Counted from the stretch's first letter, positions 17,300 through 21,962 are shown. The stretch is 64,000 nt of DNA from Bacillota bacterium (GCA_050952625.1 JBMNLH010000001.1:1440001-1504000), one strand, 5' to 3'. Notes: generated by a model not told the origin, from the letters alone. Made by a program: numbers and translations.

Positions 17300-19219
17300 T
17301 CAAAAAACATAGTTTTTCAGCTCTATTGAATCCCTATATTTTACACCTACAGGCAACAAGAGCAGTTGTTTATTTTCTTCTAAGAGAATATCCCTTTGGA
17401 CCAATTCATCAATAACTTGATCCAAAGTGCCGTTTTCCGTTTCTACCGGCCATTTTTCAGCTAGATAATTTTTCAGCGATTGTCTTGACTGTATCTCATC
17501 GCACAATAGGGCTACGTCATGATGAAGGTCGGCCAGGAAGATAAATCGGCCATCGCCGTATCTATTATCAAAAATTTTCAAAAAGCCCGGCCCAATGCTG
17601 TAATTATAAAGCGGAAGACCCTGGGGACTTTTTTTATAGTCAAGCCACCGGTCTATCTCTTCTCTAACCCGTTTTATGTGTGGGCTATCCTGATCTTTGT
17701 TCTTATACTGTGTTTGAAAGAAATAACCTATTTTCATGGGGTCAAGCAGCCCGTCTGGAAAGGTCATCTGATAATCCGCTCGTAAACTACACTCATCCAC
17801 CCCGTATTGTTCCCGCTGGTTGAAGAAAGGAGAAAAACGGTGCATCTCGATAAAATGGATATTGTACTTAGGCGGCGGCAGGTGCACAATTTTCTTGATC
17901 AAATCGGCCATCTCATGATACCATTCCTCTTTTTCCCCAGGAAAGCCCGCCAGGATATTATAGGTTGCGGTCACCCCTATTTCTGCAGCCCAGCGCAAGA
18001 ATTGAATGTTCTGTAAAGCGGTTGTTCCTTTTCTCATTAGTTTCAATACCGGCGAAGAAAAAGACTCAATCCCCGGTTGGGTGTAGATGACTCCGGCCTC
18101 TTTCATATCCTTGATTTGTCTTTTGCTCATATTCACGCGGACTTCATAGAAAAGCTCAAAATCCAGGTCCAGCTCTTTCAGTCTTTGAAATAGCTCATCA
18201 CAGTGTTGCCGCGATATCACTAGGTCAGTCGCTGACAGTTTGGTTACCCGGTATCGGGCCGATAGATTCACAATATCTCTGAGGATTCGATCAATGCTTT
18301 TTGATCGAAATTCCATAGTTTCTGGGTTAATCCCGCAGAACAGGCACTGGCTTTTTCTTCCCCACCAGCAACCCCTTGATCCCTCGTAGGATAAACTGTC
18401 TACACTAAAAGCCTTGCCAGTCTTCTTTTTTATTCTTTCCGTCTCCAAAAAGAAGTCATCATAATCTGGCAATGGACTTTGGTTCATATCCGGCAACGGC
18501 CTTCCCGGGACAAGGTCGATTTGGTCATTAACCCAGCTTGTTACGCCAGGAATGCCAGTCGTCCCCTCATTCCTGGCCAATCTTTCCAAGTATTCCCGAA
18601 ACGATTCCTCTGCCTCACCAAGAAAGACATGGTCCAAGACGTGCGGAAAGGCTCGGTGGTATTCCTTGCCCATCTCCCCGTCAAAAGAAGCGCCCCCCAC
18701 AATCACTTTAAGGTCAGGCCGGAGCTTTTTAAGCCGGCTGGCTAAAGCCAGACTGGCCATTGCTTGGTTGAAGGTGGCACTGAAGCCCACCACAGTAGGA
18801 TTCATTTCAAGCACTCGCGCCGTAACCTGATCAAGAAACTGTGGAATTATCTCATCTCGGAGGTGAAAAAAATAAGCAGGATCTTCAATTGGGCAATTTT
18901 CCCATTTCTGTATTTGGGTATCCTCTTGTGCAATCTCGGAAAAGCTTTGCACAAAGGCATCGCTAATTAACTCTTCTTTCCCGAAGATATCAACCGCAAA
19001 AAGATGCTCAGAAATTCCGTAAAGTGATCGCTCATTCGCAAATCTGTCTGCCGCTTCAAAACCTATCATATTCGCCATATCCAGATTCGGATATAGCGTC
19101 TTGACCTCAATGCACTTTTCCGCACAAAGTGCCGCAATAATCCCGAGTGATATGGAAGGCCTTTGTGGAGTAGCCCAGGGCATATGAATCAAAAGAACCT
19201 TCGGCGTTTTCCGGTTCAT
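17300..19219 (-). CDS. Cobalamin-dependent radical SAM RiPP C-methyltransferase (TIGR03975/PoyC-like)
   Basis: N-terminal MPW...PSISLG, B12-binding VVGFSATFNQ..IVGGA..GEMG..GEAE; SRGCWWGRKSQCLFCG (Cx7Cx2C); QPGIESFS...LKLMRKG; C-terminal beta-strands plus helices resembling an RRE. Confidence 0.9.
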   Translation of the reverse strand: MNRKTPKVLLIHMPWATPQRPSISLGIIAALCAEKCIEVKTLYPNLDMANMIGFEAADRFANERSLYGISEHLFAVDIFGKEELISDAFVQSFSEIAQEDTQIQKWENCPIEDPAYFFHLRDEIIPQFLDQVTARVLEMNPTVVGFSATFNQAMASLALASRLKKLRPDLKVIVGGASFDGEMGKEYHRAFPHVLDHVFLGEAEESFREYLERLARNEGTTGIPGVTSWVNDQIDLVPGRPLPDMNQSPLPDYDDFFLETERIKKKTGKAFSVDSLSYEGSRGCWWGRKSQCLFCGINPETMEFRSKSIDRILRDIVNLSARYRVTKLSATDLVISRQHCDELFQRLKELDLDFELFYEVRVNMSKRQIKDMKEAGVIYTQPGIESFSSPVLKLMRKGTTALQNIQFLRWAAEIGVTATYNILAGFPGEKEEWYHEMADLIKKIVHLPPPKYNIHFIEMHRFSPFFNQREQYGVDECSLRADYQMTFPDGLLDPMKIGYFFQTQYKNKDQDSPHIKRVREEIDRWLDYKKSPQGLPLYNYSIGPGFLKIFDNRYGDGRFIFLADLHHDVALLCDEIQSRQSLKNYLAEKWPVETENGTLDQVIDELVQRDILLEENKQLLLLPVGVKYRDSIELKNYVF

Positions 19220-19261
19220 AATCTCTCCCCTACTATAAGCATTTTTTCAGTAAGATAAAGC

Positions 19262-20431
19262 TCAATATACACTAAAGTTTTCCGGGTGCTGTAAAAGCTC
19301 ACAGGCTTGCTCATATCCTTCAAGCTTACCCCTTAGATGGATAAATCTATCTAAAGCATCCTCCAGCATGTATTTTTCCTGCATCAATCTGAAGGTGGCC
19401 ACAGCGGTTCTCAAGACATTTTCCGGGGTTGCGGCCTTGTAGTCAAGGTATCTGGAAATCGTCGGATGATTGAACAAAACGGGGCACAGGTCACAAATAT
19501 CGTCGGGCAGGTAGTCCGGCAGTTCCTCAAAATACGAGGAATCGGTAAGCCAGCGTATCAGTTCCGAAAACCCAAGCAATCTAATATGCTGCAGTAAAGG
19601 ATGGCACATGAAATCCCGGTAGATATCCTTAAGTTTTCTTTCCCGGGCATTTCCGAATTGGAAAGGATGGAGCCTTGACTCAACTAGACTGCAGCAGCAA
19701 GGGGCAACTGACCCATCGTAGCGAATGACCACACCCTGGGTTACACAGGGCCTGGTCCAGTGGATGTTTTCTGGTTCTCCAGGCATGTCTAGTTCCCGGG
19801 CTCGTCCATATTTGCGTATCTTTTGGCAGGACAAATCATCCGGTTCGGCAAAGCTTTGCAGGTAATCTAAAATCTCTTGATCCATATCCGTGGCCGGCGC
19901 GTGATAGGTTAATCGCAGGTCCACCTTCAAACCCATTGACTTTATTACTTCATAAGCTAGCTTGATCTGTTCCTTAGCGACAAACTCCAGGTGATATGCA
20001 TCAATCGACAAGTTCCAGACCTGTATGCCAGGATATTTTTTCACCAGCGTTCTTATGGCTCGCTCATCCCTAAAGAAATAGCCCGAAGTAACAATGCCGC
20101 ATACTAGTCCGGCCTCAGCCGCCTTCTGTGAGATCACGCCGACTTGTTTAGACGCCAACAAGGCTTCGCCCCCGGTAAAGCCAATACTTCTGACACCGCA
20201 GGTGTAGAGTTCCTCCATCTGTGACGCATAGACCTGCGCGTCCTCAAAAGGCATAGTTGTGTGGCCCTGGTCAGGCCCAGCCCCGACTAGGCAGTGTTTA
20301 CAACTCAAAGGACAGGCCAGGGTCAGGCTAAAAGAAAAATGTTTGGCGCATTGATTTTGATACCGCGACAGTTCGTCAAGGGTAAGAGATAGCCGGTTCC
20401 CTTGTCCCAGCGTCATTTGCTTATGGTCCAA
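19262..20431 (-). CDS. Radical SAM enzyme, EpeE/YydG-like peptide epimerase family (twitch-type auxiliary cluster)
   Basis: CPLSCKHC; IGFTGGE; TSGYF; LSIDAYHLEFV; RPC..DGSVAPCCC; PLLQHIRLLGF; ICDLCPVLF. Same motif order as B. subtilis YydG/EpeE. Confidence 0.8.
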   Translation of the reverse strand: MDHKQMTLGQGNRLSLTLDELSRYQNQCAKHFSFSLTLACPLSCKHCLVGAGPDQGHTTMPFEDAQVYASQMEELYTCGVRSIGFTGGEALLASKQVGVISQKAAEAGLVCGIVTSGYFFRDERAIRTLVKKYPGIQVWNLSIDAYHLEFVAKEQIKLAYEVIKSMGLKVDLRLTYHAPATDMDQEILDYLQSFAEPDDLSCQKIRKYGRARELDMPGEPENIHWTRPCVTQGVVIRYDGSVAPCCCSLVESRLHPFQFGNARERKLKDIYRDFMCHPLLQHIRLLGFSELIRWLTDSSYFEELPDYLPDDICDLCPVLFNHPTISRYLDYKAATPENVLRTAVATFRLMQEKYMLEDALDRFIHLRGKLEGYEQACELLQHPENFSVY

Positions 20432-20456
20432 TTCAATCCCTCTTTTTCAGTTATGC

Positions 20457-21572: not shown

Positions 21573-21583
21573 GCAGTGAATGA

Positions 21584-21913
21584 TTAAGTAGTAGGCTTGT
21601 CAAATTTCCGGTTAATTCTACTGTCAATTTTCTTGTCAACTTGCTTCAGGTTGTGGTTCATTAATTCTTGTTTCATAACTGCTTCTGCCTTGATTCTACC
21701 AAGTTGGTTAAGAATCTTCGAGGTAGTTGCAGAAATGTTGTCGGAAAGAGCGTTTACTTCATATGCATCTTGAACCTGTCCGGGATTTCTAAAATTGACT
21801 AGTTCAGCAATAGTCATTTCTTCAAAGGATTTCGTTAACCCGGGTATTCTAATTTTTTTGAGATCACTAACATCTTTGCTTAAAAAAAGATTCAACGATT
21901 CTTTAGACGGCAT
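21584..21913 (-). CDS. 109-aa hypothetical protein, candidate substrate/precursor of the three radical SAM enzymes
   Basis: SD AAGGGGGTG; first gene of the operon; no Cys and no double-Gly site; not recognised as a known family. Confidence 0.75.
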   Translation of the reverse strand: MPSKESLNLFLSKDVSDLKKIRIPGLTKSFEEMTIAELVNFRNPGQVQDAYEVNALSDNISATTSKILNQLGRIKAEAVMKQELMNHNLKQVDKKIDSRINRKFDKPTT

Positions 21914-21937
21914 TCAACCCACCCCCTTCACGCGCTT

Positions 21938-21962
21938 ATTCGTAGTGCCGAGTATATCTCCT
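21938..21962 (-). promoter_or_regulatory. SigH-like promoter of the rSAM operon
   Basis: Minus strand AGGA-N17-GAAT (same spacing as the spoVG promoter). Confidence 0.5.

Follow-up and report, generated by a model that had tools for sequence, protein, structure and literature searches.

A conserved four-gene cassette combining EpeE-like radical SAM enzymes with a B12-binding C-methyltransferase as a candidate RiPP pathway

A compact gene cassette on the minus strand of a Bacillota genome probably encodes an uncharacterised pathway of the type that yields peptides made on the ribosome and modified post-translationally (RiPPs). The cassette lies in the window, i.e., the 64,000-nucleotide stretch of DNA that was analysed (GCA_050952625.1 JBMNLH010000001.1:1440001-1504000), and comprises genes for a 109-amino-acid protein, for two radical S-adenosylmethionine (SAM) enzymes of 351 and 389 amino acids that resemble the peptide epimerase EpeE (hereafter rSAM1 and rSAM2) and for a B12-binding radical SAM C-methyltransferase of 639 amino acids. 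On balance, we regard these genes as an operon whose enzymes would install D-residues and C-methyl groups on the small protein. The chemistry is inferred. The analysis itself shows which genes the cassette holds, the families and folds to which their products were assigned, the conserved residues, the synteny, the purifying selection on the genes and, as a model, an interface between leader and enzyme. A preliminary description of the region, made from the sequence alone, had noted four co-oriented and closely spaced genes, and the open reading frame (ORF) listing bears this out: all four ORFs are on the minus strand, the intergenic gaps from the precursor gene to the B12 gene measure 71, 25 and 42 bp, and a Shine-Dalgarno-like sequence stands 5' of each gene.

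The two middle enzymes are closest to EpeE. rSAM1 (20457..21512, minus strand) carries CPLQCAHC (residues 31-38), TGGE (78-81), SSDVYH (134-139), C221, PCC (236-238), LLQLIQAVGF (272-281) and CECC (306-309), and rSAM2 (19262..20431, minus strand) carries CPLSCKHC (40-47), TGGE (86-89), SIDAYH (142-147), C229, PCC (244-246), LLQHIRLLGF (279-288) and CDLC (313-316). The motif order CxxxCxxC, TGGE, S.D.YH, C...PCC, LL..I...GF, CxxC that had been read from the sequence is therefore present in both enzymes. The cysteines of the radical SAM cluster are C31/C35/C38 in rSAM1 and C40/C44/C47 in rSAM2. rSAM1 matches the Pfam family Radical_SAM, and the best NCBIfam match of both enzymes is TIGR04078 (YydG family peptide epimerase), the sole NCBIfam model that aligns over nearly the full length, including the C-terminal cluster domain. 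All 49 members of the rSAM2 family match this model at E <= 1e-8 (with a best E of only 3.4e-21), against 24 of 49 for the next family. In a sequence search of the PDB, the EpeE/YydG chains 8AI1-8AI6 are the sole matches for both enzymes, with E-values of 4e-10 for rSAM2 (residues 29-324) and 4e-5 for rSAM1. The AlphaFold model of rSAM2, based on 49 homologues, has a mean predicted local distance difference test score (pLDDT) of 92.9. When this model is compared with solved structures by Foldseek, the top nine matches are EpeE chains (E 9e-15 to 7e-14; target-normalised template modelling (TM) score 0.78-0.82), followed by anSME (E 9e-7; TM 0.45). rSAM2 is thus predicted to adopt the EpeE fold, comprising a radical SAM core and an extended twitch domain with one auxiliary cluster, to which it adds a C-terminal helical extension (approximately residues 325-389). 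The likeness of rSAM1, with its one predicted auxiliary-cluster (twitch-type) domain, to EpeE is judged from its sequence.

In EpeE, one auxiliary cluster is situated within the extended twitch domain, and Cys223 faces SAM across the peptide and is central to the quenching of the C-alpha radical as the H-atom donor (PMC13012085). The 8ai6 chain differs from the 8ai1 chain by Ala for Asp at chain position 235, and the Foldseek label of 8ai6 is that of a D210A mutant. Chain position 235 is therefore Asp210, the numbering offset is 25, and chain position 248, the second cysteine of the EpeE PCC motif, is Cys223. HMMER aligns Cys223 with C246 of rSAM2 and C238 of rSAM1, the putative H-donors; every sequence of the respective family has this cysteine (49 of 49 and 16 of 16). 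The second cysteine of PCC thus occupies the EpeE-type donor position, just as the preliminary description had claimed. Four further cysteines in each enzyme align with cysteines of EpeE and presumably ligate the auxiliary cluster: C229, C245, C313 and C316 in rSAM2 (invariant in 49 of 49) and C221, C237, C306 and C309 in rSAM1 (invariant in 16 of 16). From these likenesses we infer that rSAM1 and rSAM2 most likely catalyse L-to-D epimerisation.

The last gene of the cassette (17300..19219, minus strand) encodes the B12-binding enzyme. It scores 558.3 bits against TIGR03975 (RiPP maturation radical SAM C-methyltransferase; cut-off 281.85) over profile positions 1-606 of 606 and also matches PF02310 (33.0 bits; cut-off 32.1) and PF04055 (55 bits). 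Its radical SAM motif CWWGRKSQCLFC (residues 284-295) has the form Cx7Cx2C, a spacing that we take to be typical of the TIGR03975 family, to which PoyC presumably belongs as well. The B12 domain and the family assignment proposed earlier for this enzyme are confirmed, and its profile match makes it a genuine member of TIGR03975. The activity to expect of it would be C-methylation of a peptide with cobalamin as cofactor. The closest solved structure is TokK, at an E-value of only 9e-6. In contigs of the public DNA runs X14 and X10, small indels and substitutions are found near the stop codon of this gene (window 17200-17310), including a 2-nt deletion at 17304 in both runs; X14 additionally lacks 15 nt at 17268. 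Strains differ at this 3' end.

The first gene of the cassette (21584..21913, minus strand; ribosome-binding site GAAGGGGGTGGG) encodes the 109-residue candidate precursor. No Pfam or NCBIfam family was found for this protein or for two homologues tested, a search of the ESM Atlas gave no usable match, and a profile search of the PDB with the precursor alignment gave chance-level matches only (E 0.02 or worse). Among 5.8 billion proteins, it is represented by 3 clusters at 90% identity, and searching 1.84 billion 50%-identity clusters with a profile built from 16 family members recovers 38 representatives (E <= 1e-3). Conservation was counted over 34 full-length sequences, after fragments shorter than 83 amino acids and P0091, which diverges after the core, had been dropped. 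The most conserved part, at 3.0 bits per column, is a leader-like segment at residues 17-46 (DLKKIRIPG..KSFEEMTIAELVNFRNPG; 21776..21865, minus strand), preceded by residues 1-16 at 1.7 bits. It is followed by a candidate core at residues 47-66 (VQDAYEVNALSDNISATTSK; 21716..21775, minus strand) at 2.5 bits and by a C-terminal follower at residues 67-109 (21587..21715, minus strand), a predicted long helix with a variable tail, along which conservation amounts to 1.7 bits (67-85) and 0.85 bits (86-109). K28, T34 and L38 are invariant. The core follows the consensus D-S-Y-x-V-N-A-V-T-(D/S)-N-(V/I)-(S/T)-(V/I)-S-T-S-S, in which Val and Ile dominate at positions 53, 56, 60 and 62; D49 (29 of 34) and Tyr or Trp at position 51 (29 of 34) are among its best conserved positions. 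AlphaFold predicts a long helix for residues 60-103 and leaves residues 47-62 without a confident fold (pLDDT below 50). The divergent members L032/P0097, P0101, P0106 and P0109 have kept the leader block and changed downstream of it, as would be expected if the protein comprised a leader and a core. Residues 47-66 would then be the modified region; the reported targets of EpeE are Val and Ile (PMC13012085, PMC8326336).

The candidate precursor contains no cysteine. This excludes thioether chemistry, and sactipeptide or ranthipeptide formation was rejected on this ground. A hidden, shorter precursor was rejected as well, as the extra ORFs in the spacers are limited to one of 30 amino acids (22006..21914) and two of 22 and 87 amino acids at the 3' end. 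The 30-residue ORF (21914-22006, minus strand) runs up to the precursor's start codon, and the other loci hold no equivalent of it. The spacer in which it lies differs from that of the sister genome at 10 of 165 nt; because of this divergence, it is probably the promoter and ribosome-binding region rather than a gene.

A predicted complex suggests which part of the precursor is recognised. When rSAM2 (alignment of 49 rows) and the precursor (alignment of 16 rows) were modelled together, the median score of three runs was 0.67, compared to 0.01 for the best control. Of 80 solved complexes, 58 attained this mark, as did 2 of 110 mismatched pairs. The runs agreed on at least 38% of the contacts, with a partner pLDDT of at least 51. 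The confident contacts of the precursor are residues 17-19, 21-23, 29-31, 33-36 and 38-46, and those of rSAM2 are residues 285-293, 337-349 and 371-379, the latter two segments being helices beyond the EpeE-aligned part, which ends at residue 324. The model supports binding of the leader (residues 17-46) to rSAM2.

The cassette is conserved as a unit. In a genome of the same phylum and another family (G155), a 102-residue homologue of the small protein, rSAM1, rSAM2 and the B12 enzyme occur in the same order, followed by a 400-residue protein. When JGI metagenome contigs were searched with the alignment of the rSAM2 family, 28 loci were recovered. Synteny was counted over 24 of these, with the four weakest (L039-L042; 26-37% identity) left out; many of the 24 are near-duplicates from related samples, and 17 rSAM2 sequences are distinct at <97% identity. 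The B12 gene is directly downstream of rSAM2 in 21 of 22 assessable loci (L035 and L037 end at rSAM2), an rSAM1-type gene is directly upstream of it in 19 of 20, and a homologue of the 109-residue protein is found further upstream in 17 of 17, albeit weakly in L032. A third radical SAM gene follows the B12 gene in 6 loci. This recurrence of one gene order across unrelated genomes and metagenomes is more than chance, and the conserved neighbourhood on which the preliminary description had staked its proposal was found in the metagenome loci and in G155 alike. The 109-residue protein itself behaves as the candidate substrate it had been taken for: its gradient from leader to core, the leader retained in divergent members, its constant presence in the assessable loci and the score of the complex model fit a RiPP precursor. 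In L024 (5415-6584), the rSAM1-type gene is present as two ORFs of 165 and 197 amino acids, where relatives have a single ORF; this may reflect a frameshift or a sequencing error.

The cassette recurs in bacteria of several phyla, with a patchy distribution. Within the phylum of the window it occurs in 4 of 401 sampled genomes, and it is absent from the four other genomes of the host's family that were searched. According to the source annotation, which covers the rSAM genes only, Desulfolucanica intricata carries both rSAMs on one 323,659-bp contig. Both are also found on another contig, whose rSAM1 homologue is labelled as a Bacillota metagenome-assembled genome (MAG). By the same kind of annotation, rSAM2 homologues (with the rSAM2 gene alone covered) belong to an Azospirillaceae MAG and to Croceicoccus marinus, and an rSAM1 homologue belongs to a Nitrospira MAG. 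A genome-contig scan with a single rSAM2 query returned the sister MAG only, and a tblastn search with rSAM2 against 72,556 plasmids gave no match.

The two EpeE-like enzymes are old paralogues with 32% identity. A tree was built by a quick method from 38 non-redundant cassette rSAMs and four outgroup sequences, with the Shimodaira-Hasegawa-like approximate likelihood ratio test (SH-aLRT) as sole measure of support. ORFs shorter than 300 amino acids were left out, as were 14 of 52 sequences that were at least 97% identical to a retained one and 2 of 6 candidate outgroups (a 214-residue fragment from L049 and L051, whose N-terminus looks near-identical to that of L050). All 35 close cassette enzymes form one clade (SH-aLRT 99). 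Within it, a group of 18 rSAM1-type sequences (SH-aLRT 98) includes a subclade of the third copies located after the B12 gene, and the rSAM2-type sequences fall outside this group, giving separate orthologue groups. The root and the placement of L039-L041 are unsure because the four outgroup branches are very long. Separate orthologue groups imply that rSAM1 and rSAM2 have both been retained since before the cassette spread, and such long retention of both copies argues for distinct, non-redundant roles.

In most relatives, the cassette ends with a protease gene. All 8 loci whose downstream sequence extends over 3.4 kb or more have it, seven of them recognised by BLASTP (L024 by a partial, weak match at E 1e-6) and L028 via Pfam; examples are the genes at L012 4996-6198 and L016 13390-14604. 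The encoded protein contains PF13650 (Asp_protease_2) twice, and two D(T/S)G motifs were found in each of the six examples examined. Two such domains with two such motifs indicate a single-chain, pepsin-like pseudo-dimer of clan AA. No signal peptide is present in 5 of the 6 examples; the L028 protease begins with a signal-peptide-like segment, and the precursor that goes with it bears an extension of the twin-arginine type. The preliminary description had listed the cassette as lacking a peptidase, an exporter and an immunity gene. This is accurate for the cassette of the window, which has none of them, but not for the relatives with their dedicated tandem aspartic protease. By a strict pattern, 6 of the 38 precursor representatives are extended at the N-terminus by a conserved segment that combines a twin-arginine motif with a hydrophobic stretch and closes in an AxA-like sequence; 2 more have a looser form of it. 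Precursors with twin-arginine motifs include those of L022 (1908-2411), L028 (4805-5314) and L037 (6888-7391) as well as P0082, P0084, P0087, P0095, P0099 and P0104. These extensions suggest that the modified product is exported by the twin-arginine translocation (Tat) system in some lineages.

The 71-nt spacer between the precursor gene and rSAM1 folds at -25.8 kcal/mol (z -4.52; 0 of 200 shuffles as stable). It holds a terminator-like hairpin (21547..21572, minus strand) of 9 pairs, 7 of them G-C, which is followed by the U-rich tract CATCTTTTAT, and a second small hairpin that overlaps the ribosome-binding site of rSAM1. Stable hairpins after the precursor gene also occur in L016, L019, L020, L022, L026/L027 and L028, as judged without a shuffle control. 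RiPP operons commonly obtain more precursor than enzyme by means of a partial terminator behind the precursor gene, and the hairpin probably acts as an attenuator that raises the ratio of precursor to enzyme transcript. A promoter scan showed no enrichment (6 found, 7.3 expected). All four genes are under purifying selection: compared to the sister genome, the ratio of nonsynonymous to synonymous substitution rates (dN/dS), which is based on few differences, is 0.19 for the precursor gene, 0.32 for rSAM1, 0.24 for rSAM2 and 0.20 for the B12 gene.

These elements can be assembled into a pathway, in which the residues modified, the order of the steps, the cleavage and the biological role are proposed rather than observed. 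The 109-residue product would be the substrate, with residues 17-46 as the leader that docks on the enzymes; on rSAM2, the docking site would be the C-terminal helical extension. The unstructured stretch rich in Val/Ile and Ser/Thr (approximately residues 47-66) would be fed into the active sites. There, the 5'-deoxyadenosyl radical of rSAM1 or rSAM2 would abstract a C-alpha hydrogen and C238 or C246 would return a hydrogen on the opposite face, turning particular L-residues into D-residues, with each of the two enzymes acting at its own positions. The B12 enzyme would then methylate unactivated carbons of the same stretch, or it may precede the epimerases. The hairpin after the precursor gene probably holds the precursor transcript above the enzyme transcripts. 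In most relatives, the leader is probably cut off by the two-lobed aspartic protease that closes the cassette, and some precursors would leave by way of their twin-arginine export signal. The genome of the window has lost or never had this protease; processing, if any, would thus fall to an unlinked enzyme.

Several observations weigh against this pathway, the plainest being that none of the proposed modifications has been observed. The scores of both rSAMs against TIGR04078 are far under its cut-off of 300 bits (56.5 bits over profile positions 3-306 of 309 for rSAM1; 63.6 bits over 4-295 of 309 for rSAM2), and by this curated test they are therefore not members of the YydG family. Their identity to EpeE is about 20%. 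EpeE Asp210 is aligned with Gly in both (G233, invariant in rSAM2; G225, conserved in at least 90% in rSAM1), and this Asp was important enough to be mutated for an EpeE crystal structure (8ai6). The term 'EpeE-type' used in the preliminary description is thus apt as to the nearest curated family, the sole PDB match and the fold of rSAM2, but not as to the YydG cut-off and Asp210. Likewise, of the profile searches that it put forward, the one with TIGR03975 is passed by the B12 enzyme, whereas the YydG model is failed by both rSAMs. EpeE is reported to be leader-independent (PMC8326336), which the mechanism put forward here is not. In the complex model, confident placement is confined to the leader and does not extend to the core in the active site. 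As solved EpeE-peptide complexes exist, part of its score may also reflect likeness to them; the modelled interface, however, lies outside the EpeE-aligned portion of rSAM2. Two loci depart from the common architecture. L032 (identical to L013 of genome G259; 3224-5836) has one EpeE-like rSAM ahead of the B12 gene, with the precursor gene directly upstream of rSAM2 and a precursor in which the family leader is followed by a quite different downstream sequence. L029 (2612-5367) has the precursor, rSAM1 and rSAM2 and no B12 gene in the next 2.8 kb, in contrast to the near-identical L023-L025; the contig may have been rearranged or assembled chimerically. In the genome of the window, a search with one query found no homologue of the cassette protease (the genome being 95.9% complete), and no exporter is present in the cassette. 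For an antimicrobial RiPP, the precursor core is unusually conserved across phyla. Finally, three short exact contigs of the metatranscriptome run X20 (one covering 240 nt of the B12 gene and two covering 151 nt each of rSAM1) come from a single RNA library that possibly contains DNA and were not used for or against transcription.

None of the 401 sampled genomes of the phylum exceeds the TIGR04078 cut-off, which the Bacillus subtilis control passes. The closest match of the sample (L049, G260:C1:1098202-1098921; 160.6 bits over profile positions 65-307) sits in a 247-residue open frame without the N-terminal CxxxCxxC region and may be a truncated YydG-like gene.

The main rival to the epimerisation pathway keeps its architecture and substrate. 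One or both of the EpeE-like enzymes would catalyse something else, such as a C-C or C-O cross-link at Tyr/Trp51 or a dehydrogenation or hydroxylation after H-abstraction, with the PCC cysteine in another role. We consider this unlikely, though it deserves to be taken seriously. The failed equivalog cut-off and the replacement of Asp210 by Gly speak for it. So do the two or three long-diverged paralogues per cassette, which suggest distinct jobs, and the strong conservation of D49 and of an aromatic residue at position 51. In other radical SAM RiPPs, cross-links typically involve aromatic residues. To our knowledge, however, those RiPP radical SAM enzymes that form cross-links belong to the SPASM proteins and have two auxiliary clusters, and SPASM-type enzymes are much weaker fold matches to the rSAM2 model. 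Moreover, the H-donor cysteine of PCC is invariant in both families, and the role defined for it is in epimerisation only (PMC13012085).

It is improbable that the 109-residue protein is an accessory subunit, e.g., a scaffold, chaperone or regulator, of enzymes that act on a protein or small molecule encoded elsewhere. Its length is considerable for a precursor, its 'core' is conserved across phyla, its C-terminus is predicted to form a long helix, the window genome has no cassette protease or exporter, and the complex model binds residues 17-46 with no residue confidently in the active site. Yet, TIGR03975 is a RiPP-maturation family and no other small ORF is conserved, the lone extra one of 30 amino acids lying in a fast-diverging spacer. 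L032 and other divergent members keep the leader and change the core, a dedicated protease ends the cassette in every locus with enough sequence, and the twin-arginine signals fit an exported product. That the cassette of the window is a horizontally acquired remnant yielding no product is very improbable: the missing protease gene and the patchy, probably horizontal distribution indicated by four same-family genomes in which the cassette was not found are outweighed by four intact ORFs with ribosome-binding sites, by their retention in a second species of the genus at a dN/dS of 0.19-0.32 and, weakly, by the short exact contigs in the RNA library.

Compared to described systems, the proposed epimerisation and methylation cassette belongs to neither the epipeptides nor the proteusins and, in the pathway proposed, works like a cross between them. 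With the epipeptide system of B. subtilis (epeXEPAB) it has in common the EpeE fold of rSAM2 (target TM about 0.8) and, in both rSAMs, CxxxCxxC, the four auxiliary-cluster cysteines and PCC with the equivalent of Cys223; as in EpeX, the candidate substrate positions are Val/Ile (PMC13012085). It differs by the low identity to EpeE, the missed TIGR04078 cut-off, Gly in place of Asp210, two or three paralogues instead of one epimerase and the additional C-terminal helical extension of rSAM2 (about 65 residues), which is modelled to hold the leader. EpeX is a peptide of 49 amino acids (as in the EpeX18-49 construct of PMC13012085) to which the 109-residue precursor is unrelated. Furthermore, the membrane peptidase and ABC transporter of epeXEPAB (PMC12871923) are absent from the cassette and the related loci, which have a B12 methyltransferase instead.

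In the polytheonamide-type proteusins (PoyA, PoyD, PoyB/PoyC), epimerisation and B12-dependent C-methylation take place on one peptide (PMC8326336), as is proposed here. The proteusin epimerases are described with a radical SAM cluster only and a C-terminal RiPP recognition element (RRE) (PMC8326336), whereas the enzymes of the cassette are EpeE-like and have auxiliary-cluster cysteines; according to the same source, EpeE shares no significant homology with the proteusin epimerases. Proteusin precursors have a nitrile-hydratase-like or Nif11 leader, whereas the 109-residue protein matches no Pfam or NCBIfam family and its candidate core is about 20 residues long. Other TIGR03975-associated RiPP clusters likewise have this methyltransferase family beside a small precursor gene; here, by contrast, no precursor model matches, EpeE-like paralogues are present and relatives add the tandem PF13650 protease. 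The preliminary description had not recognised the combination from described classes. Full-text literature searches, with subscription-only papers and supplements (e.g., those of radical SAM RiPP atlases) outside their scope, found no paper describing the cassette or its architecture. D-residues and C-methyl groups on one peptide, however, are known from proteusins (PMC8326336), and this combination itself is not new. What is new is the family of enzymes used for epimerisation, that of the precursor, the presence of multiple paralogues and the protease.

On the 3' side of the cassette, a convergent GerA/spore permease/GerAC operon (window 13162-17131, plus strand) encodes a germinant receptor and points to an endospore-forming host. 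On the 5' side lie a DUF4855 gene and then an OpuAC gene on the opposite strand. The gene gaps and these flanking genes together delimit a compact four-gene unit. The DUF4855 gene (22079..24448, minus strand) was rejected as a member of the system, as it adjoins the cassette only within the genus (L014) and in no other loci. Its 789-residue product has DUF4855 as its C-terminal half (190 bits) and about 400 N-terminal residues without a family match, and it is 83% identical to the copy of the sister genome. Further along, an ADP-ribosylglycohydrolase gene and a 439-residue ORF stand side by side (window 26015-26968 and 26980-28299, both minus strand); no Pfam family was found for the 439-residue ORF at E <= 1e-5. 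The host assembly measures 2.9 Mb, and its closest public relative, the sister genome used above, is a MAG labelled Syntrophomonadaceae. The stretch of the window is present in bioreactor and anaerobic-digester metagenomes from many studies.

A wider reading can be put forward tentatively, as somewhat short of probable when all its parts are taken jointly. The cassettes would represent a new RiPP class in several phyla, defined by a precursor family of about 100 amino acids, two or three EpeE-fold paralogues, a TIGR03975 enzyme and a pepsin-like leader peptidase, with Tat export in some Gram-negative lineages and a physiological role of the product. In such a class, the added helical domain of rSAM2 may serve to hold the leader. 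The conserved core suggests a physiological role (cofactor-like, metal-binding or in the envelope) over that of a fast-evolving antibiotic. In any case, the cassette is a sound genome-mining lead, as it is widely distributed and its hosts may be testable; should Desulfolucanica intricata or Croceicoccus marinus carry the complete cassette, tests in culture would become feasible. If the proposed pathway is true, it would supply peptide engineering with new epimerases that depend on a leader and with a leader peptidase of a new type, and it would be a case of Tat-exported radical SAM products. The described radical SAM peptide epimerases fall into just two families (PMC8326336), and EpeE is the sole one with a structure. 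The cassette would extend the EpeE fold well past the Firmicute epipeptide loci, in the form of specialised sets of paralogues, and would provide a second, independent route to peptides with D-residues and C-methyl groups besides that of the polytheonamide-type proteusins.

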